Notes: a model not told the origin generated them from the sequence alone. DNA of 64,000 nucleotides from Polyangiales bacterium (GCA_044229975.1 JBGARZ010000009.1:347947-411946), one strand, 5' to 3'. Shown: positions 8,404 to 55,388, counted from the stretch's first letter. Numbers and translations: made by a program.

Positions 8404-9102
8404 CTATCGATACGACACCCCGGTGCCCGCGTGTCCGCAGTACCCGGTGGGGTTCAGCTCGCAGTACTGCTGGTGATACGCCTCTGCGTAATAGAACGGC
8501 GGCGCCTCGCGGATCTCCGTCGTGATGGCCGCCGACCGACCCGCGGCCCGCAGCGCCGCCGCATACCGATCGCGCGAGGCGAGCACCGCGGTTCGCTGAG
8601 CGGGTGTCGTGGTGTAGATCGCCGAGCGGTACTGCGTTCCCACGTCGTTGCCCTGCCGCATGCCCTGCGTCGGGTCGTGCCCCTCCCAGAACACCCTCAA
8701 CAACTGCTCAAGCGTCGTCTGCCTCGGATTGAACACCACGCGCACCATCTCGGCGTGCCCCGTCCGGCCGGTGCAGACCTCGTGGTAGTCGGCGTTGGGC
8801 GTCGCGCCGCCCGCGTACCCGACGGCCGTCGAGACCACGCCGGGGAGGTGGAAGAAGTGCTCCTCGGCACCCCAGAAGCACCCCATGCCGAAGTACACGA
8901 CCTCGGTGTTGGCGGGCGTCACGTTGAGGGGCGTTCCGAAGATGTGGTGAGGCGCCGTGAGGGGCATCGGTGTCGACCGACCCGGCAGCGCCTGACCAGG
9001 CCCGGGGAGCTGCGCCATCTGCGCGCCGACGTACGGCCGCGCCACGAGAAACACCCCCGCCAGCGCGACCACGACCACGGATGAGCGGATGAGATTGTTC
9101 AT
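8404..9102 (-). CDS. msrA: peptide methionine sulfoxide reductase MsrA (membrane-anchored or secreted)
   Basis: GCFWG active-site motif ([14 protein letters not shown]); N-terminal hydrophobic segment [20 protein letters not shown]. Confidence 0.85.
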
Positions 9103-9157
9103 GGGTGACGCAGCGTACGTCACCGATGGGGTTGTGGTTACGAGCGGGTGTGGGGCG

Positions 9158-10462
9158 TCAGTCGCCGCCGAGGTGGACGTGCACCTCGCGGCCCGCCACG
9201 AAGGTGCGCTCGACGCGACCCGTGACGTTCCATCCCTCGAAGGGGGTGTTCTTCGACTTGGAGTTGAGCTTGGCGGCCTGCACCGTCCACGCGCGCTCGG
9301 GGTCGATGACCACCACGTCGGCGCGCGAGCCCTCCCGCAGCGACGGCGCCCGCAGCCCGAACACCTTCGCCGGCCCGATGGTGAGCGCCTCGATCACCCG
9401 CGCCACCGACACACGCCCCTTGGCGACCAGACCCAACAGCAACGGCAGGCAGGTCTCCAATCCCACCATCCCGTGCTTGGCCTCGGCGAACTCGCAGTCC
9501 TTCTCCCGCTCGGCGTGCGGCGCGTGGTCGGTCGCCACGCAGTCGATGGTGCCGTCGGCGAGGGCGTCGATCATCGCGTCGACGTCGGCCTGCTCACGCA
9601 GCGGGGGATTCACCTTGCACGCGGTGTTGTACCCGAGCACCGCTTCGTCGGTGAGCGTGAGGTGATGCGGCGTGACCTCAGCGGTCACTCTCAGCCCGCG
9701 GGACTTCGCCTCGCGGACGAGCGCCGCCGTGCCCGCCGTGCTGGCATGGGCGACGTGGTAGTGGGCGCCGGTGCTCTGCGCGAGCATCACGTCGCGGGCG
9801 ACGATGTGGTCCTCGGCGACGCGCGGCCAGCCCTTGAGGCCGAGGCGCGTGGAGACGCGGCCCTCGTGCATCTGGGCGTTGGCGGTGAGCGCGTGGTCTT
9901 CGGCGTGCTGCACCAGCACGAGGCCGTGGGTGCGGGCGTACTCCAGCGCGCGTCGCATCACGCCCGCGTCGGTGACGCAGCGGCCGTCGTCGCTCACGGC
10001 GACGCAACCTGCATTGCGCAGGTCGGCCATCTCGGCGAGCACGCGACCTTCGAGGCCCTTGGTGATCGCCCCAATGGGATGCACCTCTACGATGCCGTGC
10101 GAGCGCCCCTTGGCGACCATCATCTCGGTGATCGCGCGGTGGTCGTTGACGGGGTTGGTGTTGGGCATCGCGCACACGGTGGTGAACCCGCCCGCGGCGG
10201 CCGAGCGCGTGCCCGTCGCGATGTCTTCCTTGTACTCGAGGCCCGGCTCGCGGAGGTGCGCGTGCAGGTCGACGAAGCCCGGTGTCACCCAGCGCCCGGC
10301 GCAGTCGATGATGACCGTGTCGCGGTCGTCGGCCTTCACCGCCGCGGCCGCCATCGGGCCCACCGCGGTGATGCGGTCCCCCTCGATGATGACGTCCGCG
10401 ACCTCATCGCGGCCCGTCGATGGATCCATCACTCGCCCGCCACGAAGCACCGTCCTGGTCAC
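9158..10462 (-). CDS. pyrC: dihydroorotase
   Basis: 434 aa; [16 protein letters not shown] and the metal-binding pattern of the cyclic amidohydrolase family; GTG start. Confidence 0.85.
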
Positions 10463-27085: not shown

Positions 27086-30000
27086 TCAGGGAAGGGCGCG
27101 AGCGCAGCGGAAGCCGACGTACGGGTTGTCGTTCATCGCGGGCGGGGCCGTGAAGCGCCCCACCGAGAGCAGGCCGTTGGGGTCGCTGTCGCCCCACGAC
27201 CCGCCGCGGACGATGCGATCGGCGGTCAGGCTCAGGTTGCTGAGCGGGTTCAGGTTGGACGACCACGACGGGCGGTAGGACTGGAAGGTGTCCGCCATCC
27301 ACTCGTAGACGTTGCCTGCCATGTCGTTCAGCCCGCCGCTCACGCCGGTGGGGTAGCTGCCCACGCGGCGGGTGCCGCCGCCGTCGGTGCCGCCGCAGCC
27401 GCGCCAGAGGGCGCGGTCGCAGCTGGTGCTCGGAGGGGTGTTGCCCCACGGGAAGAGGCGCCCGGAGACGAGCCCCTCGCTGGGAATCGTGCGACCGCGG
27501 GCCGCGAACTCCCACTCGGCCTCGGTGGGAAGGCGGCCGCCGTCCCACACGCAGAACTCCTGCGCCGCCCAGTAGCTGACGGCGTTCATCGGGTGCGCGT
27601 CGCGCGTCGTCGACGCGGGCGACCAGTTGAACGAGCCCGACTGCGCCCCCGGCGCGACCGCCGCCGCGCCCCAGGCGATGGTGTTCGCCCCGGGGTAGGC
27701 GATGGGCGCCGAGCGCACGGTCGCGAGGTCGCGCGAGCGCACCGACCACCATGCGTTGAAGCGCGCCACGGTGACCTCATAGGTGTCCATCGCGAAGCTG
27801 CCCACCGCGATGCTCGGCTGCTCCGGGGTGCCGCCGTAGAACGACGAGGTCGCGTTCGACCCCACCGTGAAGGTGTCGCCGCCGACGATGGCGACGAGGC
27901 CGCAGCCGGGGGTTCCCGCGACCGCGCAGCTCCGCTGGCCGCAGACGCCTGCGACGCACGCCTCGATGGCGCCGCACACGCGCCCGCAGGCGCCGCAGTT
28001 GTTGCGGTCGGTCTGCGCGTTGACGCAGGTCCCCGCGCAGCTCAACTGGTCGGGCGCGCAGAGGGTGGGACCCTCGGCGTAGAGCGCGGCGATCGCGCAG
28101 GGGCTGAGGGCCGTGTTGTAGAGCCGGGCCTCGTCGACGTCGCCGGCGAAGAAGGGGTCGTTGCCCGCCGCCGTGCCCACGCCGTTGACGTGCACCGCGT
28201 GGCGAACGCCCAGGAGGATCTGCGCCACGTTGGCCCCGTAGGCCTGCATCGTGCCCTGGGTGTAGGCCGCGTAGAGCGCGCCGTTGCGGTAGATCTTGAT
28301 GCTGTTGTCCGCCGCGTAGGCGATCGCGATCATCACGCTCGTGGGGTACGCGACGGTCTCCAGGGCGCCGCCGTTGTTGCCCGGGCTGCGCAGGGCGTAG
28401 TAGCTGGCGCTCTGCCACTGGCGCGGGGTGCCCTCGCCGAAGACGATGGCGTCGAAGAGGTCGTCGCCCGCGATCGGGGTGTCGATCGCGAGCACGCCGC
28501 CCGAGCGCTGCGTGAGGTTCTGCGGGCTGACCCAGGCCACGAGGGTCCGCACGGTCACCGTCTGAGGCATCGCGGCGGTACGGGCGTACTGCGTGATGCC
28601 GTCGAGGCCCAGCCGACCTCCGACCACCGACGCGCCGTTGTAGAGCGTCAGGTGGAGGTTGCCGATCGAGTCGTTCCCGGTGCCGTCGTTGAAGGTCCAG
28701 CGGTGGATCGGCGCGGGAGCCGTCGTCGGCGCGCACCCGCAGGCGCCCGCCGTACAAGCCTGCCCGGCCGCGCACGCCTGGCCGCAGGCGCCGCAGTGGG
28801 CGGTGTTGGCGGTGACGTTGACCTCGCAGCCGTTGGCTGCGGTACCGTCGCAGTTGGCGTAGCCCGCGGCGCACCCGCAGGTGCGGCTACCGGGCGTGTT
28901 GGTGCAGACCTCGTTGGCGGCGCAGTTGCCGTTGTTGGTGGCGCACTCGTTGACGTCGACGCAGGCGCCGCCCGCGAGGGTGTAGCCGGTGTTGCACGCC
29001 GCCGGGGCGCAGGCGCCCGCGAAGCAGGCGGCCGTCCCGTTGGCGACGACGCAGGTGTTGCCGCAGCCGCCGCAGTTGGCGGCGCTGCTCCCGAGGTTGA
29101 CCTCGCAGCCGTCGGTGGAGCTCGCGTTGCAGTTGGCGTAGCCCGGCGCGCAGGTAGCGAGGGCGCAGGCGCCCGCGGTGCACGAGCCGGTGCCGTTGGT
29201 GTACGAGCACGCCACGCCGCAGCCGCCGCAGTGGGCGGCGTTGGAGGCGAGCGTCACTTCGCAGCCATTGCTGCCGTCGTTGTCGCAGTCAGCGAGTCCG
29301 CCGGCGCAGACCGCCGTGGTGCATGAGCCCGCCTGGCAGGTGCGTCCCTGGGTGCAGACCACGCCGCAGCCGCCGCAGTTGGCGCTGTCGGCGTTGGCGT
29401 CGACCTCGCAGCCGTTGGTCGTGTTGCCGTCGCAGTCGCGCTGCCCCGGGGCGCACGCGTAGCCGCACACGCCCGCCGAGCAGGTGGCAGTCGCGGACGG
29501 AGCGTCGTTGCAGACGACCCCGCACGCGCCGCAGTTGCCGGTCTCGGTGGCGGTGGAGACCTCGCAGCCGTTGCCCGCGAGGTGATCGCAGTCGGCGAAG
29601 TTCGCGTCGCACGAGCCGACGCCACACGCACCGTTGCTGCACGCCGCCGTGCCGTTGATGGTGGTGCAGGCAGTCCCGCACGCGCCGCAGTTCGAGGCGT
29701 CGGTGGTGATGGCCACCTCGCAGCCGTTGGCCGCGTTGCCGTCGCAGTTGGCGTAGCCCGCAGCGCACGCGCCCATCACGCACGCACCCGCCGCGCAGGC
29801 GGCGCCGGCGTTCGCGAAGGAGCAGGCGTTCTGGCAGCTACCGCAGTGGGCGGCGCTGGAGCCGAGGGAGACCTCGCAGCCGTTGCTCTCGTCGGCGTCG
29901 CAGTTGGCGAGGCCCGCGGTGCAGGTCGTGGCCGAGCACGCCCCGCTCACGCAGGTGCGACCGTCGGTGCAGGCGTTGCCGCAGACGCCGCAGTTGGCGC

Positions 30001-32488
30001 CGTCCGTGGTGATCGCCACCTCGCAGCCGTTGGCGGCGTTGCCGTCGCAGTCGGCGTGCGTCGCGTCGCAGGTGTACCCGCAGGTCGCGCCGCCGCAGGT
30101 CGCGGTGGCGTTGGCGGGCACGTCGCAGGCGGTCGCGCAGGCGCCGCAGTGGGCGAGGTCGGAGGTCAGCGAGACCTCGCAGCCGTTGGCCGGGTTGCCG
30201 TCGCAGTTCGCCCAGCCGGCGTCACACGCGCCGAGCGCGCAGACGCTGGCACCGCACACGCCCGTGGCATGCGCGTAGGTGCAGCGGGTGCCGCAGCCGC
30301 CGCAGTTGCTCGCGTCGTTGCCGAGCGCGATCTCGCAGCCGTTGGCCTGGGTGCCATCGCAGTCGGCATAGCCCATGTCGCAGACCGTGAAGCCGCACGA
30401 CCCTTCGGTGCACACCGGAGCGGCGTTGGCGAAGGAGCACGCGTTGCCGCACGCCCCGCAGTGGCCGCTGTCGGTCGCGGGCGTGGTCTCGCAGCCGTCG
30501 GAGAGGAGCCCGTTGCAGTCGGCGTGACCGGCCGAGCACACCGCCGTCGAGCAGGCGCCCGACTGGCAGGTGGTGGCGTTGGTGCAGACCGTTCCGCAGG
30601 CGCCGCAGTGCGAGCCGCTGGTGGTGGTGTCGACCTCGCAGCCGTTGCTCGCCACGCCGTCGCAGTTGGCGTAGCCCGCTTCGCAGGTGATGCCGCAGGT
30701 GCTCGCGCCGCAGGTCGGCGTCGAGTGCGGGCCCGAGGCGCAGGTCACGCCGCAGGCGCCGCACGAGGTGACCGACGAGAGGTCGGTCTCGCAGCCGGTG
30801 GCCGCGTCGCCGTCGCAGTTGGCGAAGCCGGTCGAGCAGGCCCCGACCGCGCACGCGCCCGCCGCGCACACCGCGGTGGCGTTGGAGAGCGAGCAGGCGC
30901 TGCCGCACGCACCGCAGTGGGCGGCGCTGGTGTCGAGCGCGACCTCGCAGCCATTGGCCGCGATGCCGTCGCAGTTGGCGTAGCCCTCGGCGCAGCTCCC
31001 GATGGCGCACGCGCCCGCCGCGCACACCGGCTCGGCGTTGGCGAGGGAGCAGGTGTTGCCGCACGCGCCGCAGTGGGCGGTGTCCGTGGCAGGAACGGTC
31101 TCGCAGCCGTTGGCCGCGCTGCCGTCGCAGTTGGCGAAGCCGGGGTTGCAGGTTCCGACCGCGCACGCTCCCGCCGCGCAGGCCGCGGTAGCGTTGGCGA
31201 CCGCGCACGCGTGCTGGCAGGCCCCGCAGTGCGCGGGGTCGCTGGCGAGCGAGACCTCGCAGCCGTCCGCGGCGGAGGTATTGCAGTTGGCCTGCTGGGC
31301 CGGGCACACGATGGAAGAGCAGGCGCCGCTCACGCAGGTGCTGGTGCTCCCCGCGCTGGAGGTGCAGACATTGCCCGGGGTGCCGCAGTTGGCGTTGGTG
31401 GTGACGTCGAGCTCGCAGCCGTCGGCGCGGTTGCCGTTGGCGTCGGCCCAGCCCGCCGCGCAGGTGAGCGCGCAGGTGCCGGTGCCGCAGGTCGGGGTCG
31501 AGTGCGCGCCAGAGGTGCACGAGACACCGCAGGCGCCGCAGTTGGTGAGGGTGCGGGTGGAGGTCTCACAGCCGTCCCTGGATCGCCCGTTGCAGTCGCC
31601 GTAGCCCGTCGCGCAGGTGGAGCGGTCGCAGCTGCCGGCGACACAACCCGCGTTGGCATGACCGATGGTGCAGGGCGTCCCGTCGGGCGCGACGGCGAAC
31701 GAGCACCGGCCCTCGCGGGGATCGCAGATGCCCGCGAGGCGACACTGGTCGTCGGGCTCCCGACAGGTGACACCGACGCACTCGCAGACGTCACCTACCC
31801 CGTTGCGGTTGGTGTCCCGCTGGTCGGCGTTGGCCACCGTCGGGCAGTTGTCCTGCCAGTCGAAGCGGCCGTCGCCGTCCTGGTCCACCGCGGGGCGGTC
31901 GATGCGAAACTTGATCTCGAGCGTGTCCCCGTTGAGCAGCGGCGCGAAGTTGACGGTGTCGACGGTGCGAAACTCGCGGGTCGTGCCGACCACGTCGACG
32001 TCCGCGAAGCCGAGCTCGCGGGTGCCGCCGTCGGCCGCCGGGACCATCACGCGCACCCGGTATCGGGCGTCGGTCGAGAGCCGCGCGCGGCGGGTGTCCC
32101 ACTCGACGAGGAAGTACCCGTCGGGGTCGTCGGCGCGGTCGTTGGGTCGGCGCGTGGTGATCGCCTCGACCCGTTGGTCCGACTTCCCGCGCGTGGTGAA
32201 GGTCGCCAGGGTGCGCAGCGTGGTGCCCGCGGCGTTGATCTCGTCGATGCGCACCGTGGGCTCGACCGAGGGGACGAAGTCGCCGAACTGCGCCGGCCGC
32301 GGGACCATCGGCGGCAGGAAGAGGAAGCCCGCCGTCCCGCCGTTGTGGAGCTGGTCGGAGATGACCGCCTGCGCGGCCCGGTGGGTGCCGTCGCCGCCGG
32401 GCGTGTCGGTGGAACTACACCCGACGGCGATCATCAGCGGCACACAGAGTGCTGCCAACGTGGGGCGTCTGGGTCTTCGATTGGGCAT
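27086..32488 (-). CDS. giant multidomain lipoprotein: TSP3 repeats, about 18 Cys-rich 40-aa repeats, cbEGF-like, LamG-like and C-terminal FGE-sulfatase (SUMF1-like) domain
   Basis: Start MPNRRPRRPTLAALCVPLMIAVGCSS with GGGAGAA RBS (ORF-track start 32506 is 6 codons upstream). TSP3 DQDGDGRFDWQDNCPTVANADQRDTNRNGVGD. Repeats of the form CGACG..C....C..GAC..G.C..G.ANCDG...NGCEV. CVDVNECATNNGNC (cbEGF-like). C-terminus contains RGGSW...GFRCAR (FGE-sulfatase fold). Confidence 0.8.
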   Translation of the reverse strand: MPNRRPRRPTLAALCVPLMIAVGCSSTDTPGGDGTHRAAQAVISDQLHNGGTAGFLFLPPMVPRPAQFGDFVPSVEPTVRIDEINAAGTTLRTLATFTTRGKSDQRVEAITTRRPNDRADDPDGYFLVEWDTRRARLSTDARYRVRVMVPAADGGTRELGFADVDVVGTTREFRTVDTVNFAPLLNGDTLEIKFRIDRPAVDQDGDGRFDWQDNCPTVANADQRDTNRNGVGDVCECVGVTCREPDDQCRLAGICDPREGRCSFAVAPDGTPCTIGHANAGCVAGSCDRSTCATGYGDCNGRSRDGCETSTRTLTNCGACGVSCTSGAHSTPTCGTGTCALTCAAGWADANGNRADGCELDVTTNANCGTPGNVCTSSAGSTSTCVSGACSSIVCPAQQANCNTSAADGCEVSLASDPAHCGACQHACAVANATAACAAGACAVGTCNPGFANCDGSAANGCETVPATDTAHCGACGNTCSLANAEPVCAAGACAIGSCAEGYANCDGIAANGCEVALDTSAAHCGACGSACSLSNATAVCAAGACAVGACSTGFANCDGDAATGCETDLSSVTSCGACGVTCASGPHSTPTCGASTCGITCEAGYANCDGVASNGCEVDTTTSGSHCGACGTVCTNATTCQSGACSTAVCSAGHADCNGLLSDGCETTPATDSGHCGACGNACSFANAAPVCTEGSCGFTVCDMGYADCDGTQANGCEIALGNDASNCGGCGTRCTYAHATGVCGASVCALGACDAGWANCDGNPANGCEVSLTSDLAHCGACATACDVPANATATCGGATCGYTCDATHADCDGNAANGCEVAITTDGANCGVCGNACTDGRTCVSGACSATTCTAGLANCDADESNGCEVSLGSSAAHCGSCQNACSFANAGAACAAGACVMGACAAGYANCDGNAANGCEVAITTDASNCGACGTACTTINGTAACSNGACGVGSCDANFADCDHLAGNGCEVSTATETGNCGACGVVCNDAPSATATCSAGVCGYACAPGQRDCDGNTTNGCEVDANADSANCGGCGVVCTQGRTCQAGSCTTAVCAGGLADCDNDGSNGCEVTLASNAAHCGGCGVACSYTNGTGSCTAGACALATCAPGYANCNASSTDGCEVNLGSSAANCGGCGNTCVVANGTAACFAGACAPAACNTGYTLAGGACVDVNECATNNGNCAANEVCTNTPGSRTCGCAAGYANCDGTAANGCEVNVTANTAHCGACGQACAAGQACTAGACGCAPTTAPAPIHRWTFNDGTGNDSIGNLHLTLYNGASVVGGRLGLDGITQYARTAAMPQTVTVRTLVAWVSPQNLTQRSGGVLAIDTPIAGDDLFDAIVFGEGTPRQWQSASYYALRSPGNNGGALETVAYPTSVMIAIAYAADNSIKIYRNGALYAAYTQGTMQAYGANVAQILLGVRHAVHVNGVGTAAGNDPFFAGDVDEARLYNTALSPCAIAALYAEGPTLCAPDQLSCAGTCVNAQTDRNNCGACGRVCGAIEACVAGVCGQRSCAVAGTPGCGLVAIVGGDTFTVGSNATSSFYGGTPEQPSIAVGSFAMDTYEVTVARFNAWWSVRSRDLATVRSAPIAYPGANTIAWGAAAVAPGAQSGSFNWSPASTTRDAHPMNAVSYWAAQEFCVWDGGRLPTEAEWEFAARGRTIPSEGLVSGRLFPWGNTPPSTSCDRALWRGCGGTDGGGTRRVGSYPTGVSGGLNDMAGNVYEWMADTFQSYRPSWSSNLNPLSNLSLTADRIVRGGSWGDSDPNGLLSVGRFTAPPAMNDNPYVGFRCARALP
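28726..31756. repeat. tandem ~120-nt coding repeats (Cys-rich 40-aa units) inside the giant gene
   Basis: Recurrent DNA units such as cgcagccgttggccgcg.tgccgtcgcagttggcgtagcc every ~120 nt; protein repeat ...ANCDG.A.NGCEV... about 18 times. Confidence 0.6.
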
Positions 32489-32666
32489 TGAGGTTCTCCC
32501 TGGCATTGGCCGACCGGGAGCTCACGACTTGTGGGCGTTTGGGCAGCCAACGGGACTCATCGCACGGCGACCATGCGCATCCCGATAGCAGCGTGGTTGC
32601 AGCGGCTCTTGGCCGCGGCGGAAGCGGCGAGGGAATGAGATCCCCCGCCGCTGCTTCAGGTGGGGT

Positions 32667-35600
32667 TCAGGGGCAGGTGAGCGCGGCGCAGGTCGACGGC
32701 GGGTCGGCCGGGCACGGGCCCTCGACCAGTTGAATCTGGTCGAAGTCCGCCGAGCTCCCGACCGGGCCCTGGAAGAGCTGGAACCGCAGGTACACATGCG
32801 TCCAGTCCGCGGGCATGACCATCTGCTTGGGGTACCAGCGCCACGTGTTGTCCGAGACCATCGGGGTGATGGTGCCGCCCAGGTAGTCGCTGTCGCCGCA
32901 ACCGCCGAGGCCCCAGAACTGCTCGTAGATCGACGCCTGACCCGCCGCGTTGGAGCGGTGGAAGCCGACGTAGGGGACGGCGCCGGGCGTTCCGCGCACC
33001 CACGACGAGAGGCAGTAGGTGCGCCCGCCGACCACCGGGGTCGGGACGTTGGTGAACACCCGACCGCCGCCCTGCGGAAGAAGCGCCGTCTCGTGGAAGT
33101 ACGTCCCCGCGCACTGCGGGCTCGCCGACGCGAGGGTCAGCGGACGCGCGTCGATGGAGTGCCAGGCCCCGGCGCCCGACTCCCAGTTCTCGGTGAAGGT
33201 GACGCTCGTGCACACCGGGCAGGCCGCGCCGGAGCAGCGCGTCGGCGGCGTGCAGATGGTGTTGACGCAGGCGCCCGCCGAGCACGCCTGATGGTAGGCG
33301 CACACGTTGCCGCACGCGCCGCAGTTGCTCGTGGTGGTGACGCTGGTGCACACGCCGCCGCAGCTCGCGAAGCCCGCGTTGCAGGCGCAGGTGCGGCTGC
33401 CCGGCGTGTTGGTGCAGGTCGAGTTCGTCCCGCAGCCGCCGTTGCTGGTGAGGCACTCGTTGACGTCGGCGCAGGTCACGCCGTTGCCCGTGTAGCCCGC
33501 GTTGCACGCGCAGGTGCGGCTGCCCGGGGTGTTGGTGCAGGTCGCGTTGGCGCTGCACCCGCCGTTGCCGGTCGCGCACTCGTTGACGTCGACGCAGGCG
33601 CCGCCCGCGAGGGCGTAGCCGGTGTTGCACGCCGCCGGGGCGCAGGCGCCCGCGAAGCAGGCGGCCGTCCCGTTGGCGACGACGCAGGCGTTGCCGCAGC
33701 CGCCGCAGTGCGCGGCCGTGCTCCCGAGGTCGACCTCGCAGCCGTCCGCGGAGCCCGCGTTGCAGTTGGCGTAACCCGCGTTGCAGCTCGCGAGCGCGCA
33801 GGAGCCCGCGGTGCACGACCCGGCGCCGTTGGCGTAGTTGCAGGCGACGCCGCAGCCGCCGCAGTGGGCGGCGTTGGCGTCGAGCGTCACCTCGCAGCCG
33901 TTGGCCGCAGCGTGATCGCAGTCGGCGAGGCCCGCGGTGCAGACCGCCGTGGTGCACGAGCCCGCCTGGCAGGTGCGGCCCTGGGTGCAGACCACCCCGC
34001 AGCCGCCGCAGTTGGCGCCGTCGGCGTTGGCGTCGACCTCGCAGCCGTTGGCCGCGCTGCCGTCGCAGTCGCGCTGCCCCGGGGCGCACGCGTAGCCGCA
34101 CACGCCCGCCGAGCAGGTGGCCGTCGCGGACGGAGCGTCGTTGCAGACGACCCCGCACGCGCCGCAGTTGCCGGTCTCGGTGGCGGTGGAGACCTCGCAG
34201 CCGTTGCCCGCGAGGTGATCGCAGGCAGCCGTTGCCCGCGAGGTGATCGCAGTCGGCGAAGTTCGCGTCGCACGAGCCGACGCCACACGCACCGTTGCTG
34301 CACGCCGCCGTGCCGTTGATGGTGGTGCAGGCAGTCCCGCACGCGCCGCAGTTGGAGGCGTCGGTGGTGATGGCCACCTCGCAGCCGTTGGCCGCGTTGC
34401 CGTCGCAGTTGGCGTAGCCCGCAGCGCACGCGCCCATCACGCACGCACCCGCCGCGCAGGCGGCGCCGGCGTTCGCAAAGGAGCAGGCGTTCTGGCAGGT
34501 TCCGCAGTGGGTGGCGTCGGCGTCGAGCGCGACCTCGCAGCCGTTGCTCTCGTCGGCGTCGCAGTTGGCGAGGCCCGCGGTGCAGGTCGTCGCCGAGCAG
34601 GCCCCGCTCGCGCAGGTGCGACCCTGGGTGCAGGCGTTGCCGCACGCGCCGCAGTTCGCGCCGTCGGTGGTGGTCGCGACCTCGCAGCCGTTGCTCGCGA
34701 GACCGTCGCAGTCGGCGTGGGTGGCGTCGCAGGTGTAGCCGCACGATCCGCCGCCGCAGGTCGCGGTGGCGTTGAACGGGACGTCGCACGCCGTCGCGCA
34801 GGCGCCGCAGTGGGCGAGGTCGGAGGTCAGCGAGACCTCGCAGCCGTCGGCCGGGTTGCCGTTGCAGTCGGCCCAGCCCGCATCACACGCGCCGAGCGCG
34901 CAGGCGCTGGCGCCGCACACGCCCGTCGCGTGGGCGTAGGTGCAGCGCGTGCCGCAGCCGCCGCAGTTGTCGGCGTCGTTGCCGAGCGCGATCTCGCAGC
35001 CGTTGGCGCGAACGCCGTCGCAGTCGGCGTACCCGACGTCGCACACCACGAAGCCGCAGACGCCCGCCGTGCACTGGGGCGCGGCGTTGGCGAAGGAGCA
35101 CGCGTTGCCGCACGCCCCGCAGTGGCCGCTGTCGCTGTCCGGCGTGGTCTCGCAGCCGTCGGCCGCGAGGCCGTTGCAGTCGGCGTGACCGGCCGCGCAC
35201 ACCGCCGTCGAGCAGGCGCCCGACTGGCAGGTGGTCGCGTTGGTGCAGACCGTCCCGCACGCGCCGCAGTTCGATGCGCTCGTGGTGGTGTCGACCTCAC
35301 AGCCGTTGGCCGCGTTGCCGTCGCAGTTGCTCCAGCCCGCTTCGCAGGTGAGGCCGCAGGCGCCCGCGCCGCAGGTCGGCGTCGAGTGGGGCCCCGACGC
35401 GCAGGTCACGCCGCAGCCGCCGCAGGAGGTGACCGCCGAGAGGTCGGTCTCGCAGCCGCTCGACGCGTTGCAGTCCGCGAAGCCCGGCGCGCAGGCGCCG
35501 ATGACGCACGCGCCCGCCGCGCAGACCGCCGAGGCGTGCGAGAGCGAGCAGACGTTGCCGCACGCGCCGCAGTGGGACGCGCTGCTGTCGAGCGCGACCT

Positions 35601-37146
35601 CGCAGCCGTTGGCCGCGCTGCCGTCGCAGTTGGCGTAGCCGGGCGCGCAGCTCCCGATGGCGCAAGCGCCCGCCGCGCAGACCGGCGAGGCGTTGGCAAA
35701 GGAGCACACGTTGCCGCAGGCGCCGCAGTGGGCGACGTCGGTGGCGGGCGTGGTCTCGCAGCCGTTGGAGGGATTGCCGTCGCAGTTGGCGTGGCCGGGA
35801 GCGCACGACCCGAGAGCGCACGCACCGGCCGCGCAGACCGCGCTGGCCTGAGCGTAGGAGCAGGCGTTGCCGCAGGCGCCGCAGTGGGCGACGTTGGAGG
35901 CGGGGTCGACCTCGCAGCCGTTGGCCTCGTTGCCGTCGCAGTTGGCGAGGCCGCCGGTGCAGACCGTGGCCGAGCACGCGCCCGCGATGCAGGTGCGACC
36001 CGCGGTGCAGGCGTTGCCTGCGGTTCCGCAGTTGGCGTTGGTGGTCACGTCGAGCTCACAGCCGTCGGCGCGGTTGCCGTTGGCGTTGGCCCAGCCGGGC
36101 GCGCAGGTGAGGGCGCAGGTACCGGTCGCGCAGGTGGGCGTCGAGTGGGCGCCCGCGGTGCACGCGACGTTGCAGCCGCCGCAGTGGGTGAGCGTGTTGG
36201 TGGCGACTTCGCAGCCGTCGGCCGCCGAGCCGTTGCAGTTGGCGCGGCCTGCGTCGCAGGTGGCGACGCCGCATGTGCCGTTGGTGCAGACCGCCGTCGC
36301 GTTGGCGAGCGAGCAGGCCGACCCGTTGGGCGCGTTGGGGTTGGAGCACAGGCCGGTGGCGGGGCTGCACACGCCCGCGGTGTGACAGGTCCCGCTGGTG
36401 GTGCAGGTGACGCCGAGGCACTCACAGGCGTCGCCCTGGCCGTCGTGGTTGGTGTCGAGCTGGTTGGCGTTGGCCACCGTGGGGCAGTTGTCCTGCCAGT
36501 CGAGGTCGCCGTCGCCGTCGCGGTCCACCGCGGGTCGGTCGATGCGGAACTTGATGCGCAGCACGCGCCCGTTGATGAGCGGGGAGAAGTTCACCGTGTC
36601 GACGCTGCGGAATTCCTGCTGGTTGCGGACGACGTCCACGTCCGCGAAGCCGAGCTCGCGGGTGCCGCCGCCGACCGCCGGGACGAGCACGCGCACGCGG
36701 TAGCGGGCGGTGGGCGAGAGGCACTCGTTGTTGGTCTTCCAGCGCGCGAGGAAGTAGCCCTCCGGGTCGGTGTCGCCGTCGTCGTCGTCCCAGTCGCAGG
36801 GGGAGCCCTGGTAGTGGATGCGGAGGCGCTCGTTGCCGGGGCCGCTGTTGGCGGTGAAGGTCGCGAGCGTGCGGATGGTGACACCCGCAGCGTTGACCTC
36901 GTCGATGCGAACGGTGGGGTTCACCGTCGGCAGGAAATCGCCGAACTGCGCCGGTCGCGGGACCATCGGCGGCAGGAAGAGGAAGCCCGACGTCCCACCG
37001 TTGTGGAGCTGGTCGGAGATGACCGCCTGCGCGGCGCGATGGGTCCCGTCGCCGCCGGGTGTGTCGGTGGAACTACACCCGACGGCGAGGAGGAGCGGCA
37101 CACAGATGGCCGCGAGCGTGGGTCGCCTGAGTCGTCGACTGGACAT
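32667..37146 (-). pseudogene. paralog of the giant lipoprotein, disrupted by a +28-nt frameshift (or assembly artifact); C-terminal cbEGF x2 and galactose-binding-like domain instead of an FGE domain
   Basis: N-terminal frame (ORF 32656-37224, start MSSRRLRRPTLAAICVPLLLAVGCSS at 37146 with GGGAG RBS) runs into Arg-rich out-of-frame sequence after about 34225. The correct C-terminal frame is ORF 32667-34292. The shift coincides with a 28-nt tandem duplication absent from the paralog. Confidence 0.7.
34197..34252. repeat. 28-bp perfect tandem duplication (gcagccgttgcccgcgaggtgatcgcag x2) causing a frameshift
   Basis: Directly visible. The paralogous site 29564-29591 in the intact gene has a single copy; flanks are identical. 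Confidence 0.9.
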
Positions 37147-37273
37147 GGAGTCTCCCTCGTGTGGTCGCGGAGAGACCCACGGAGTGTGAGCGCCCCAGTG
37201 ACCAACGGGAGCCATGCCAGACAACCGTCCAGAGACCGATGGCAGGTCGGTGGCGACGCGCGCCGCAGCGCGT

Positions 37274-40840: not shown

Positions 40841-42061
40841 CTACGTCGAGCCCGGCGTGCGCAGCTTGTCGCTGCCGACCCACTCGTCGTAGCTGTCGTT
40901 CCAGCCCTCGTAGTGGATGCGGTGGAGCGACGCGCGCACCTCGCGGATCGTGGCCGCGTACCACCGCCGTCGCCAGCGGGCCTCGACGCTCGTGCCCACC
41001 GCGTAGACCACCGGCGTGTACGCCCGGATGCGGTCGGCCCCGACCCACTCGTCGAACAGGTGATTGAACTCCGCGTACCGGACAAACACCTGCCCGTTGG
41101 CGCGGCGCTCCAGCACGATGGCGCGGTACCACCGGCCCTGGTAGCGCACCTCGATGGTCTCGCCCTCGCCCATCGCCGGCGCGCTGGTGCGCGGACCCAG
41201 CGCCCACGACGTCGCGAAGCCGCCGCGGGTGGTGGCCGTCGAGCGCTGCTGGTCGAGGTACGCGAGGCGGGTCTCGGCGTGCGTAGCCACGTCGGCGAAG
41301 GTGATGGCCGCGTCGCCGTTGCGATCGGCCGCGGCGGCACCGCGGATGCCGTCGAGGAGGCAGTCGGTGAAGGTCCACGCGCCGGTCGACTGCTCGCTCG
41401 CGTCGCTCGAAGCGAGCACCGCGGCCGGGACGTTGAGGCGACTCATCACCTCGGCGTCGAGCGCGCCCGAGTAGCAGCAGTCGGCGGTGAGCATCACGGC
41501 CGCGCCGCGAAACGACGCGAGCGCCTGGGCGATGCTCGACAGGCCCCAGCACGTCGCCTGGGCGTCGAGGGTTCCGTCGTAGGGGACGAAGAAGCTCGCG
41601 GTGGCGCCGCCCATGCCCGCGTCGCGGTCGGCGGAGACGCGCATCCCGTGGCCCGCGAAGTAGAGCCAGAGCAGCTCGCCCGGCTGGGTGGCGGCCACCG
41701 CTGCGGCGAAGCCCGCGACCACCGCCGCGCGCGTCGCAGCCCGGTCTTGCAGGTAGGTGATGTTGCCCCGCGGAACGCCCCGCGCCGCGAAGGCCTCGAC
41801 GAGCTCCACGTCGCGCCGCCCTTCGGCGGTAAACGACCCGAAGGTCTCGCTGTCGGCCCACGCGAGCAGCCCCACCGCGAAGACGCGGGTGCGCGCCGGA
41901 TCGAAGGCCGCGCTCACCGGCAGCACGTCCGCGCCGACGGAGGTACCCGCGTCCCGCGCGGCGCCCGACGACCCGCCGTTGCCACAGGCGGCGAGCGGTG
42001 TGGCGAGGGCGGCCCCGCAGAGGCCGAGGACGCTGCGACGGGTGAGTCGGGTTTCGCTCAT
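40841..42061 (-). CDS. caspase-like (peptidase C14) TAT-exported lipoprotein with tandem C-terminal Tudor/Agenet-like domains
   Basis: Twin-arginine signal TRRSVLGLCGAALATPLAACG. Caspase dyad motifs LWLYFAGHGM and LTADCCYSGAL. Two repeats RWYRAIV...VRYAEFNHLFDEWVGADRIR / RWYAATIREV...IHYEGWNDSYDEWVGSDKLR. Confidence 0.65.
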   Translation of the reverse strand: MSETRLTRRSVLGLCGAALATPLAACGNGGSSGAARDAGTSVGADVLPVSAAFDPARTRVFAVGLLAWADSETFGSFTAEGRRDVELVEAFAARGVPRGNITYLQDRAATRAAVVAGFAAAVAATQPGELLWLYFAGHGMRVSADRDAGMGGATASFFVPYDGTLDAQATCWGLSSIAQALASFRGAAVMLTADCCYSGALDAEVMSRLNVPAAVLASSDASEQSTGAWTFTDCLLDGIRGAAAADRNGDAAITFADVATHAETRLAYLDQQRSTATTRGGFATSWALGPRTSAPAMGEGETIEVRYQGRWYRAIVLERRANGQVFVRYAEFNHLFDEWVGADRIRAYTPVVYAVGTSVEARWRRRWYAATIREVRASLHRIHYEGWNDSYDEWVGSDKLRTPGST

Positions 42062-49752: not shown

Positions 49753-50952
49753 CTACGGAGCCGTGGAGGGGCGCGGTCCGCTCTCTTCCATCTGCACCCG
49801 CGAGCGCAGCGTCACCTGTCCCGGAACCTCCAGCCGAAACCACCCCCGACTCTCGTCGAAGGCCCCGCCGATGTTGGGTGTGAAGAGCCTTCGTGTGGCC
49901 ACCACGGTGAAGCTCCAGCGCGAGCGTCGACCGCCCGGCAGCGGCATCGGGTCCTGCTCCTCGACGCCGTGGCGCACGGCTTCTTGCGCGGCGCGGTCGA
50001 AGCCCGGGATGCCCGACGGGTGCAACAGCGTCACGGAGAGCACGCGGCCGTTTTCGTCCTGCTCGACGAGCACCTCCGCGCGGGTCGTCCGAACGTTGCG
50101 CCGCCACGACTCCTCGCCCTGATCGGTCGGCATCATCGGGCGGGTGGTGAGGCCCTGGCCTGCGGTTCCGCCGATGGCGTCGATGGCGTCGCGGGCGCCG
50201 CCGAGGCGCGGGGCTGCGGCGTCATCGAGCACCTGCCGCTGACGGCGCATCACGCGCTCGCCCATGATGCGAATGGCCCGCTCCGGTGCGATGAAGCTCG
50301 CCATGATCGTGTCGGCGAGGTTGGGGACGCGCACCACGCCGGGGCGCCATGCTTCGGCGACGCGGCGGCGGACGTTCCAGAGGTAGGTGCGGACGCCGGG
50401 GGCCTCGCGGACGGTGGTGGCGGCGAGGGTCTCGCGGACGAAGCCCTGCGAGGCGGCGACGGCGCGCTCGGCGTCGGTTCCGGTGGTGCCCGCGAAGAGG
50501 GGCGCACGAGCGGGCGCGGCGGAGGGAGGTGCGGGGAGCGTGGTCGCGAGCTCGGTGGTGCGCGGACGGAGGAGGTCGGCGGCGCTCAACACGGGCGGAG
50601 CGACGGGCGTCGGAGGGACGACGGGCGTCGGAGGGAGAACGGGCGTGGGCGGAGCGACGGCAGGCGCTGGAGGGAGAGCCGCGGGCGCGGGGCGGGTGGC
50701 GGCGAGGCGAGCGGCGGGACGAGCCGCGGCCTCGGTTGGGACGACAGGCGCGGGCTCAGCGGGCGCGGGAGCTGGCGTGGGTGGCGACGGCGGTGGCGGC
50801 GGCGGGGCTTCGATGGTGAGCTCGGTGACGTTCACCGCGCGCGGTAGTGGGAGCGACGAGGGCGGGTGCGGCAGTGCGATGAGGAGGGCAAAGACGGCGG
50901 CGTGCCCCGCGACGGAGGCGATCAGCCAACGTGAGCGCCCATCGACGGTCAT
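49753..50952 (-). CDS. TonB-like energy transducer (N-terminal TM, Pro-rich linker, TonB C-terminal domain)
   Basis: TM LIASVAGHAAVFALLIAL; linker PPPPPPSPPTPAPAPAEP...; C-terminal GRVLSVTLLHPSGIPGFDRAAQEAVR. Confidence 0.65.
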   Translation of the reverse strand: MTVDGRSRWLIASVAGHAAVFALLIALPHPPSSLPLPRAVNVTELTIEAPPPPPPSPPTPAPAPAEPAPVVPTEAAARPAARLAATRPAPAALPPAPAVAPPTPVLPPTPVVPPTPVAPPVLSAADLLRPRTTELATTLPAPPSAAPARAPLFAGTTGTDAERAVAASQGFVRETLAATTVREAPGVRTYLWNVRRRVAEAWRPGVVRVPNLADTIMASFIAPERAIRIMGERVMRRQRQVLDDAAAPRLGGARDAIDAIGGTAGQGLTTRPMMPTDQGEESWRRNVRTTRAEVLVEQDENGRVLSVTLLHPSGIPGFDRAAQEAVRHGVEEQDPMPLPGGRRSRWSFTVVATRRLFTPNIGGAFDESRGWFRLEVPGQVTLRSRVQMEESGPRPSTAP

Positions 50953-51013
50953 CGCCCGTACGATGACACGGAAGGCCGATCGGGCTCAGAGCGCTCCCCT
51001 CAGGGTCGGTGTC

Positions 51014-51284
51014 CTCAACGAGGTCGCGCCTGCGTGCCGGAGTTCGCGTGACCCCGTAGCGGGGGCGTGCAGTCGCTCACTCCGGGCTATTTCAGGTGGT
51101 CACCTCGCTCCGCGAGGTTGCAGGGACCGCGGCCGACGATGAATCGGGCGATGGTTTGCTCGTCGCCGCCAGTGCCGCAACCTCGCGGAGCGAGGTGACC
51201 ACCTGAAATAGCCCGGAGTGAGCGACTGCACGCCCCCGCTACGGGGTCACGCGAACTCCGGCACGCAGGCGCGACCTCGTTGAG
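51014..51284. repeat. perfect inverted repeat, 108-bp arms (51014-51121 and 51177-51284) with a 55-bp spacer; candidate MITE / foldback element
   Basis: Right arm is the exact reverse complement of the left arm (checked base by base). Lies 12 nt downstream of the qor stop and upstream of the tonB-like start. ORFs 50387-51142 (+) and 51087-51584 (-) encode the same peptide because of it. Confidence 0.85.
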
Positions 51285-51295
51285 GCGAGAGCCCC

Positions 51296-52267
51296 TTACG
51301 GCACCAGCACGACCTTGCCCAGCACCTCGCGGCGCTCCAGCCGCTCCAGCGCTTCCGTCGCTTGCGCAAACGGGTACGCCCGGTCGACGTGCGGCGTCAG
51401 CTTCCCCTCGGCGACCCACTGGAAGATGCGCGTCGCATGAGCGCGGTTCTTCTCCGGCTCGCGCATCGCAAACGACCCCCAGAACACCCCGACGATGTCG
51501 CAGCCCTTCAGCAGCGTGAGGTTCAACGGGATCTTCGGAATCTCCCCCGACGCGAAGCCCACCACGAGGTAGCGCCCCTGCCACGCGATGGACCGCAGCG
51601 CCTGCTCGGCGAGCGCTCCGCCCACCGGGTCGTAGACCACGTCCACCCCAGCACCGCTCAACTCCTTCGCGCGGTCCTTCAGCGACTCGCGCCCGTAGTT
51701 GATCCCGAGGTCGGCGCCGTTCTTCTGGCAGAACGCCACCTTCTCATCCGTCGACGCCGCGGCGATGACCCGCGCGCCGAGCGCCTTGCCCAGCTGCACC
51801 GCCGCGATGCCCACACCCCCGGCGGCGCCCAGCACCAGCAGCGTCTCGCCCGACGCGAGGTGCGCGCGGTCCACCAGCGCGTGCAGCGTCGTCGCGTACG
51901 TCAGCAGCGTGGCCGCGCCCACCTCGAAGCTCACCGCGTCGGGGAGCTTCGCCGTCGCCAGCTCCGGCACCACCACGCGCTCGGCGAACGCGCCCGACAG
52001 CATCGTCGCCGCCACGCGGTCGCCCACCTGGAGCGACGTCACGCCGCGGCCCACGGCCTTCACGACGCCTGCCACCTCGCCGCCCGGGACAAACGGCGGC
52101 TCGCTCCTGAACTGGTACTTCCCGCGGGTGACCAGCACGTCGGGGAAGTTCACCCCCGCGGCGCGCACGTCGACGAGCACCTCGCCGTCACCCGCGACGG
52201 GCTCGTCGATCTCGTCCACCCGCAGGGCGCCCGGCCCCGACAACTCCTGGCATCGAACAGCGCGCAT
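51296..52267 (-). CDS. qor: NADPH:quinone oxidoreductase / zinc-binding MDR dehydrogenase
   Basis: Start MRAVRCQELSGPGALRVDEIDEP; GAAGGVGIAAVQLGKALGARVIA Rossmann motif. Confidence 0.8.
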   Translation of the reverse strand: MRAVRCQELSGPGALRVDEIDEPVAGDGEVLVDVRAAGVNFPDVLVTRGKYQFRSEPPFVPGGEVAGVVKAVGRGVTSLQVGDRVAATMLSGAFAERVVVPELATAKLPDAVSFEVGAATLLTYATTLHALVDRAHLASGETLLVLGAAGGVGIAAVQLGKALGARVIAAASTDEKVAFCQKNGADLGINYGRESLKDRAKELSGAGVDVVYDPVGGALAEQALRSIAWQGRYLVVGFASGEIPKIPLNLTLLKGCDIVGVFWGSFAMREPEKNRAHATRIFQWVAEGKLTPHVDRAYPFAQATEALERLERREVLGKVVLVP

Positions 52268-55169: not shown

Positions 55170-55388
55170 GACCGCCAACGCCCCTCGGCGTGCGGAGAAG
55201 AAGGGCCGCCAGGACGCAAGGGTCGCAAGGGGGAAGGAGGATGGGGCTCGAAGCGTGTGTCGGGTGCGAGGCATCTCTCACCTCGCGCCTCTCACCTCCT
55301 CCCGACACCGCCTGCTGTGAGAATTCTCTCCCCTTGCGACCCTTGCGCCCTGGCGGCTTTTTCTCTCACCGCGCTCCTCGAATGCAGC

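Follow-up and report, generated by a model that had tools for sequence, protein, structure and literature searches.

Between a qor-type oxidoreductase gene and a tonB-like gene, in a 64,000-nt stretch of DNA (hereafter, the window), lies a perfect palindrome of 273 bp that belongs to a new repeat family of a known kind in uncultured Myxococcota. Our reading, which we hold to be probable as a whole, is that a palindromic repeat dimer was inserted once at the qor stop and that its arms have since been homogenised by arm-to-arm copying. The element would be a MITE-like or REPIN/BIME-like dimer, its two inverted units of ~86–109 nt being separated by a spacer of 55 nt, and its family would be dispersed in the genomes of an uncultured, ~72% GC clade of Myxococcota. 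The insertion most likely took place a single time, immediately behind the last codon of qor, in the ancestor that the window shares with two related lineages (represented below by the contigs L010 and L022/L029); it would have moved the old TGA stop ~296 bp downstream and probably duplicated ~10 bp of the target. The arms would then have been kept identical by copying between them, whether through intramolecular gene conversion or through template switching at the hairpin during replication, so that lineage-specific changes and an outward extension of ~15 nt would have come to stand in both of them.

The palindrome and its repeat family

The palindrome sits between the qor stop and the tonB-like start, both genes being on the minus strand, as an earlier note on this DNA had placed it (Table 1). 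The same note described a perfect inverted repeat of 108 bp with a 55-bp spacer; the repeat is indeed exact and the spacer right, but a base-by-base check gives arms of 109 nt each. Used as a query, the 108-nt arm returns exactly two matches, without mismatches and on opposite strands, where 0 are expected from 100 shuffles, and neither the arm search nor nhmmer with core and spacer profiles found a second copy of the palindrome in the 64-kb window, the GC content of which is 72%. A relaxed repeat search stretches the arms to 125 nt at 94%; the additional 16–17 nt are complementary at 10 of 17 positions and rest on a short self-complementary motif, CCCTGAGGG. The self-complementarity of the spacer is weak. 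Folded as RNA of the minus strand, the palindrome reaches -315.4 kcal/mol (z = -28.7 versus shuffles); the arm by itself and the spacer by itself fold no better than shuffles.

Table 1. Positions in the window of the palindrome, its parts and the neighbouring genes.
Feature	Position	Strand	Remarks
TonB_2-domain gene, downstream	49753..50952	-	Pfam TonB_2
tonB-side copy of putative duplication, CCCTGAGGGG	50996..51005	-	holds displaced ancestral qor stop TGA (51000-51002)
7 inserted non-palindromic bases, ACACCGA (minus)	51006..51012	-	absent from empty sites L011, L015
tonB-side arm	51013..51121	.	exact reverse complement of 51177-51285, 109 nt
Family-conserved core, ~86 nt (GCCGGAGTTCGCG...GAGGTTGC)	51036..51121	+	inside tonB-side arm
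Phantom ORF 1, 43 aa	51067-51198	+	
Phantom ORF 2, 43 aa	51100-51231	-	
Asymmetric spacer, 55 nt	51122..51176	.	homologous to spacers of other family copies
qor-side arm	51177..51285	.	109 nt, exact inverted partner of tonB-side arm
Family-conserved core	51177..51262	-	inside qor-side arm
6 inserted non-palindromic bases, CTCTCG (minus)	51286..51291	-	absent from empty sites L011, L015
qor-side copy of putative ~10-bp target duplication, CCGTAAGGGG	51292..51301	-	holds present stop TAA
qor-type zinc-dependent oxidoreductase gene	51296..52267	-	Pfam ADH_N, ADH_zinc_N, ADH_zinc_N_2

The palindrome is non-coding. The phantom ORFs that the earlier note had called identical both exist, on opposite strands, but what is common to them is limited to the first 18 and the last 6 residues, and a peptide search of 5.8 billion proteins found no homologues of either. 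One strand of the conserved core at 51177-51262 has stops in all three frames, within CCACCTGAAATAGCCCGGAGTGAGC, and the opposite strand is open in all three. No promoter pattern was found in the element, and an intrinsic terminator was rejected as a candidate: the scan for a Rho-independent signal (a GC-rich stem-loop with a U tract) was negative in the element, and a T run follows neither arm. The best Rfam match, to mir-1294, scores 47 bits where the gathering score is 90 and is a generic long-hairpin match, and Rfam found nothing on the family copies at other loci (L001–L004).

On the upstream side, the qor product ends in ...VLGKVVLVP as it does in relatives; the gene is intact, its stop codon alone having been swapped. 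On the downstream side, ~10 nt before the tonB-like ATG (50959-50973, minus strand), a motif TTCCGTGTCATCGT(A/T) is kept in the closer relatives L010, L011 and L015 and may serve the tonB-like gene as a signal for translation or regulation; L005 and L007 retain its inner GTGTCATCGT only, and the remaining intergenic sequence is variable. Within the tonB-like gene, a direct repeat with a period of 18–21 nt (50593-50677) encodes the proline-rich PPTPV-type repeats of the TonB linker. Farther off in the window are a 406-aa ORF at 40841-42061 (minus strand) with matches to Tudor-knot, Agenet and chromo-like domains, which are usually eukaryotic chromatin readers and unusual for a bacterium, and two very large ORFs of 1806 aa and 1522 aa at 27086-37224 (minus strand). 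The 1806-aa ORF has FGE-sulfatase, Laminin_G_3 and TSP_3 domains and an atypical codon-position GC; the 1522-aa ORF has no Pfam match.

The earlier note had read the palindrome as a MITE or foldback element, and this reading is supported: the arm core is dispersed, with copies at no fewer than four other loci in related genomes, and relatives differ in whether the qor locus itself contains the element. The family was searched for with an exact 20-mer from the arm, which was found in four contigs of metagenome Ga0075163 (L001–L004), near contig ends and in different genomic contexts. In 185,579 species-representative genomes it had 0 exact matches, as a query that is too strict, the copies in L022/L029 differing from it by one base. 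Plasmid and phage collections gave no match (blastn, distant mode), and a core k-mer had 0 matches in viral contigs. The nhmmer core and spacer profiles revealed no diverged copies in the window or in L005–L013, and ~170 kb of the window and the relatives' loci held no further family copies beyond the qor site. Together with L029, Ga0075163 has at least five family loci, and these appear to be from one related lineage. Our literature search found no paper on palindromic repeats of Myxococcota; a repeated core of ~87 bp is said to have been reported from Myxococcus xanthus in 1991.

What the copies have in common is the core, made up of a 47-nt block that is invariant in all copies at other loci and one variable sub-hairpin. 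The window core is 92–94% identical to those of L001–L004, which are 95–98% identical among themselves; with L029 included, the range for the window core becomes 89.5–94%. Similarity falls sharply outside GCCGGAG, and the perfect arms of the window extend ~22 nt past this family-conserved core. The spacers (~52 nt) are homologous among copies as well, those of L002, L004 and L029 being 61–70% identical to that of the window (nhmmer E 1e-11 to 1e-13). The outer end of the core tends to come soon after a gene: a cytochrome-c-like ORF in L003 (22 nt after its stop), a GST gene in L004 (~15 nt), a UPF0047 gene in L002 (~39 nt) and, in the window, qor (33 nt). L001 is different, as its outer end faces a lipoprotein-like gene on the 5' side of that gene.

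Not every copy has two arms. L002 and L004 have another common module attached to the core and spacer in place of the second arm, the inverted-repeat pairing is limited to the inner 19 nt, and the spacer is flipped between the two loci. L007, from a more distant relative, has the linker motif TGTGTCCCGAAGTGAAC of this module beside other palindromic units, which together with L002 and L004 indicates that these genomes carry mosaics of palindromic modules. The palindrome may therefore not be the mobile unit, as the core of L002 and L004 is paired with a different module. The common module itself is non-coding (L002 1-135, L004 1-135, L007 5337-5625) and consists of an A-rich stretch and the invariant 17-mer TGTGTCCCGAAGTGAAC; it always adjoins the base of a hairpin, the hairpin differing by locus, and in L007 it is preceded by an inverted repeat with 64-nt arms. 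The 17-mer is conserved as far as relatives whose TonB-like proteins are ~76% identical to that of the window, and is not in the window. An 18-mer of the L002/L004 linker had one match in a 53% GC phage contig (L014), which we judged to be chance. At the contig end of L001 (1-105), the spacer includes 8.8 perfect tandem copies of CCATCGACTCGT, either a minisatellite expansion within the element or an assembly loop.

History of the insertion site

Orthologous loci were gathered via the TonB-like and qor proteins. In the qor tree the window groups with L010 and L022 (92.8–94.5% identity), with L015 (~90%) and L011 (~88%) outside this group and L005 and L007 (~80%) farther out. The loci outside the group are empty sites, where the gap between qor and the tonB-like gene measures 33 nt (L011–L013), 52 nt (L015) or 48–51 nt (L005 and L007). 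The window sequence 3' of the palindrome, CCCTGAGGGGAGCGCTCTGAGCCCGATCGGCCTTCCGTGTC, matches L015 at its qor stop and intergenic region (alignment score 18, reached by 0 of 2000 shuffles), and the sequence past the palindrome aligns to the same region of L011 as well. The alignment to L015 indicates that the ancestral TGA and the DNA downstream of it were displaced; the present qor stop is a new TAA (51296-51298).

Comparison with the empty sites also suggests an imperfect target duplication of ~10 bp, CCGTAAGGGG / CCCTGAGGGG, lying 6–7 nt outside the perfect arms. The two copies are identical at 8 of 10 positions, both align to the single CCCTGAGGGG of L015, and they enclose 286 bp, that is, 6 nt, the 273-bp palindrome and 7 nt. 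On the qor side, GTGCTGGTGCCGTAAGGGG aligns to GTGCTGGTGCCCTGAGGGG of L015, and L022/L029 have CCTTGAGGG at the position of the duplication. As a direct repeat of two sequences, the pair scores at chance level (p ~0.37), and the outermost inserted bases (6–7 nt) are not inverted repeats of one another. Since the window is the sole copy recovered with both flanks, the termini and the target duplication of the element are not established. The earlier note had seen no target-site duplication, which is correct for the bases directly at the arms, whereas the three-way comparison with the empty site hints at the imperfect pair farther out.

The element is present at the same site in a sister lineage that was recovered from NCBI, JGI, ENA and five Logan samples (L022/L029/L030 and L023–L027). 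Here the family core stands 11 nt after the qor TGA, and next to it comes a spacer of 52 nt that is oriented as it is in the window. The contigs L022–L027, L029 and L030 all end within the element; in L029, 42 nt of the second arm are visible, and these are the exact reverse complement of the first.

In the third relative, L010, the nucleotide position of the window's palindrome is taken by ~1.1 kb of unrelated inserted DNA. This insert (8498-9600; GCA_044228995.1, JBGATW010000002.1) holds a 278-aa ORF with a GTP_EFTU domain, starting 10 nt after the qor stop, and then a palindromic element of another family. Its flanks are TAGAGCCCGGCGG / TGAGCCCGATCGG, the old TGAGCCCGATCGG being kept downstream in both the window and L010, and apart from the junction the two inserts have no sequence in common. 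The palindromic element inside the L010 insert (L010 9409-9559) is a ~65%-similar member of the family of a second palindromic intergenic element of the window, at 55188-55374, which is of a different family from the one at qor. This second element lies just after the stop of a Thg1-like gene and has 45-nt arms, 82% complementary, around a 97-nt spacer, with the motif GCAAGGGTCGCAAGGG; the comparison with L010 gave no empty site for it, as it fell on a synteny break.

The simplest history for these three states would be a single insertion before the three sisters diverged, with the element later replaced in L010. A common origin of the same-site copies is not proven, because those of the window and L029 are the least similar pair of all (core 89.5%, spacer 68%), the spacer of L029 being nearer to those of L002 and L004 (79–83%). 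It could be argued from this that the qor stop is a hot spot, a preferred site of recombination or insertion (att-like, or the target of a site-specific enzyme) at which three elements arrived independently. Three different contents at one nucleotide position within a tight clade, the TGAGCCCGATCGG retained in both inserted versions, same-site copies less alike than copies at different loci, and the general placement of family copies just past stop codons would all fit with such a site. However, nothing in the inserts of the window and L010 is common to the two beyond the junction, the flanks of the other family copies have no common target motif except a nearby TGA, and no recombinase gene was found nearby in the 64-kb window. 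One insertion and a replacement, moreover, takes fewer events given the qor tree, and we therefore think a hot spot unlikely.

Identity of the two arms

Substitutions were polarised with the unanimous state of L001–L004 as the reference. The window core has four derived substitutions in the perfect arm, and all four (4/4) are present in both arms; L029 has three, of which one (TTTCAGG to TTTCAAG) lies where its second arm is visible, and this one is mirrored. Mirroring in both lineages is also seen at a polymorphic site, GCTCCG versus GCTGCG. The ~22 nt of outer sequence of the window arms are missing in L022/L029, and 15–16 nt of them are part of the perfect palindrome. The arms have thus diverged from their counterparts elsewhere and never from each other; they evolve in concert, which implies arm-to-arm copying. 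Such copying could proceed by gene conversion within the molecule or by template switching at the hairpin during replication; the alternative to copying is selection for a perfect stem. Three features were out of reach of the earlier note, namely the age of the palindrome and its conservation in a sister lineage, the concerted evolution of its arms, and their extension ~22 nt beyond the core.

Selection would mean that the perfect stem has been kept because its RNA or DNA structure acts at the locus; it might uncouple qor from the tonB-like gene as an RNase III processing site or 3'-end stabiliser, block transcription, or bind a protein as a cruciform. The symmetry held in two lineages despite changes in primary sequence, made in both arms, would be expected of such a structure, as would the invariance of the 47-nt core block at other loci; the outer end, too, faces the 3' end of the upstream gene in 4 of the 5 contexts with an upstream gene. 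Arm-to-arm conversion without selection, however, predicts mirrored changes equally. The element also lacks an Rfam family and a promoter or terminator signal, and among the predicted pairs of the arm sub-structure 0 of 28 are compensatory (RNAalifold on five copies, which are too similar to inform). It is dispensable: it is absent from L011, L015, L005 and L007 and has been replaced in L010. We give selection for the stem little credence as the main explanation.

A more far-reaching idea is that the element represents an undescribed class of long-arm hairpins of Myxococcota that regenerate their own perfect arms, for example through hairpin-primed or snap-back synthesis in single-stranded transposition, where gene conversion would be a passive process, and that mark a fragile, exchangeable slot at the qor stop. 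If this were true, the replacement of the element by unrelated cargo (the GTPase ORF and second palindromic element of L010) would make the locus a cassette-exchange site without an integron. We regard this as rather improbable.

Arms that are identical at 109 of 109 positions, with the identity reaching ~22 nt beyond the family core, might also be the product of a young, local inverted duplication, in which a half-element with ~22 nt of flank was copied by a recent template-switch or fold-back event; the palindrome would then be neither mobile nor old, and the cores of L002 and L004, which have no second arm, could be taken as examples of the half-element. L029 speaks against this, since it is palindromic at the same site, at 94.5% qor identity, and with a mirrored private substitution of its own, and so does L020 (see below), in which arm and spacer are already those of the window, with 0.28% of sites differing elsewhere. 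A recent duplication is in our judgement very improbable.

The palindrome is real and not an assembly artefact, although the earlier note had allowed for an artefact of assembly or amplification. Within GCA_044228995.1, the 37-kb contig L020 matches the window at 99.72% identity over 6.4 kb; its first base is window 51176, where the spacer ends, and its first 260 nt, comprising spacer, tonB-side arm and flank, are those of the window. A separate assembly of run SRR28480386 supplied two more contigs. L028 is 100% identical to window 58300-51256 and stops 30 nt inside the qor-side arm, the outer 30 nt of which it joins to the qor flank; L021 is 100% identical to 51042-49541 and begins inside the tonB-side arm, of which it has the outer 30 nt. 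The two contigs, one from each side, thus run into the same 30-mer in inverted orientation, and breaks 30 nt into each arm are what a true inverted repeat would cause in a de Bruijn graph with k = 31, the value that we take to have been used for the assembly collection behind L028 and L021. Fold-back chimeras can yield perfect palindromes, and the junction of the qor-side arm with the spacer is seen in the window only; with three other assemblies concordant and breaking where a real inverted repeat would break them, the same architecture in the sister lineage, flanks collinear with relatives, and inserted DNA that is a repeat known at other loci, the chance of a chimeric or mis-resolved palindrome that the organism does not have is negligible.

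The element does break short-read assemblies here, at least nine contigs of the locus from different data sets being affected. A further observation concerns the bin GCA_044228995.1, which holds two versions of the locus, on contig 2 (L010) with 91–95% and on contig 66 (L020) with 99.7% identity to the window, and which therefore appears to be a mix of two related strains.

Relation to known elements, and significance

Among the known systems, REPINs and MITEs come closest to the element. A REPIN consists of two inverted REP units, 20–110 bp apart, that fold into one hairpin (PMC3337134), each unit being an imperfect palindrome of 20–40 bp with a GTAG or CGTC tag (PMC3733652); REPINs are ~89 bp long and occur in hundreds of copies (PMC3337134, PMC3733652). 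The palindrome resembles them in its inverted pair of units, its spacer of tens of bases (55 nt in the window, 52 nt in L029) and its one long predicted hairpin. Like REPINs and BIMEs, the family is intergenic, often at the 3' ends of genes, dispersed and vertically persistent, with spacers less conserved than the units, and it enters into mosaic clusters with other palindromic modules. There are differences too. The unit here is ~86–109 nt long with several sub-hairpins, in an element of 273 bp; neither end of the core has a conserved GTAG or CGTC, GTAG being found only in the variable loop of the window; the density is low, with 1 element per 64 kb in the window and none in ~100 kb of the relatives' loci; and no RAYT (Y1 HUH transposase) is found among the genes of the 64-kb window.

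Bacterial MITEs measure 50–800 bp, with terminal inverted repeats of at least 10–15 bp and target-site duplications of 2–10 bp (PMC11602168). The element at 273–286 bp is within that size range and non-coding, its terminal inverted repeats are 109 nt long and perfect, save for the 6–7 inserted bases outside them, and it has several copies in related genomes, presence/absence polymorphism and a possible target duplication of ~10 bp. Unlike in a typical MITE, the inverted repeats make up 80% of the element, as in foldback elements, and the target duplication is imperfect and putative. A related autonomous element is not known, and neither a transposase nor an integrase or RT domain, nor indeed any mobilising enzyme, was found in the 64-kb window, which is a caveat to our explanation.

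Arm-to-arm gene conversion is familiar from large palindromes such as those of the human Y chromosome and from plastid inverted repeats. Replication template switching corrects quasipalindromes in E. coli (PMC7202029). Both processes make imperfect repeats perfect and keep arms identical while lineages diverge, much as the mirrored substitutions suggest here; the documented E. coli tracts, however, are much shorter than 109 nt, and the analogy is a mechanistic one only.

Several other systems were considered and rejected. Integron attC sites are typically 57–141 bp long. The likeness to them lies in the position of the palindrome directly after a gene stop, in the outer ends CCTCAAC / GTTGAGG, which resemble RYYYAAC / GTTRRRY, and in the ORF and palindrome that L010 has at the same place. 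However, these ends fail at the R and Y positions, the stem is perfect with no extrahelical bases, 273 bp exceeds the typical length, the neighbours do not form a cassette array but are chromosomal genes in synteny, and the window has no intI. A retron msr-msd was rejected on account of the neighbours, which are the qor-type and TonB_2 genes, and of the lack of an RT domain in the window. Inverted-repeat ends of Tn3 type would have the wrong orientation, with the GGGG end inward; a TA-targeting IS630/mariner element does not agree with the borders of the other copies, which lack TA, nor do IS200/IS605-type ends, as there is no fixed tetranucleotide at the border; and a CRISPR repeat is excluded by the single copy and the lack of an array.

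As for what the palindrome may do to its hosts, the spacing of 33–52 nt between qor and the tonB-like gene in relatives suggests that the two are probably co-transcribed there. A transcript through both genes would here carry a perfect RNA duplex of 109 bp, a likely substrate of RNase III and a likely insulator of translation or transcription that would uncouple qor from the tonB-like gene. By separating the two, the element may alter the expression of the tonB-like gene. The DNA itself would be prone to form a hairpin or cruciform, and this tendency would explain both the instability of the site, as seen in the replacement in L010, and the breaks in short-read assemblies.

The general view is that bacteria do not maintain long perfect palindromes stably. 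In this case, arms of 109 bp around a 55-bp spacer have persisted at one locus across lineages that are ~6% apart in the neighbouring gene. There is practical value in recognising the family, as its members give rise to phantom ORFs and assembly breaks, and a repeat-family model would help those who annotate Myxococcota MAGs. Two aspects seem to us the most worth following: that so long a perfect palindrome has persisted with its arms evolving in concert, and that a single nucleotide position is polymorphic for three states. With these, the locus offers a natural system for how bacterial palindromes are maintained, by conversion or template switching, and how they are lost, as in the replacement in L010 and the absence from the outgroups.
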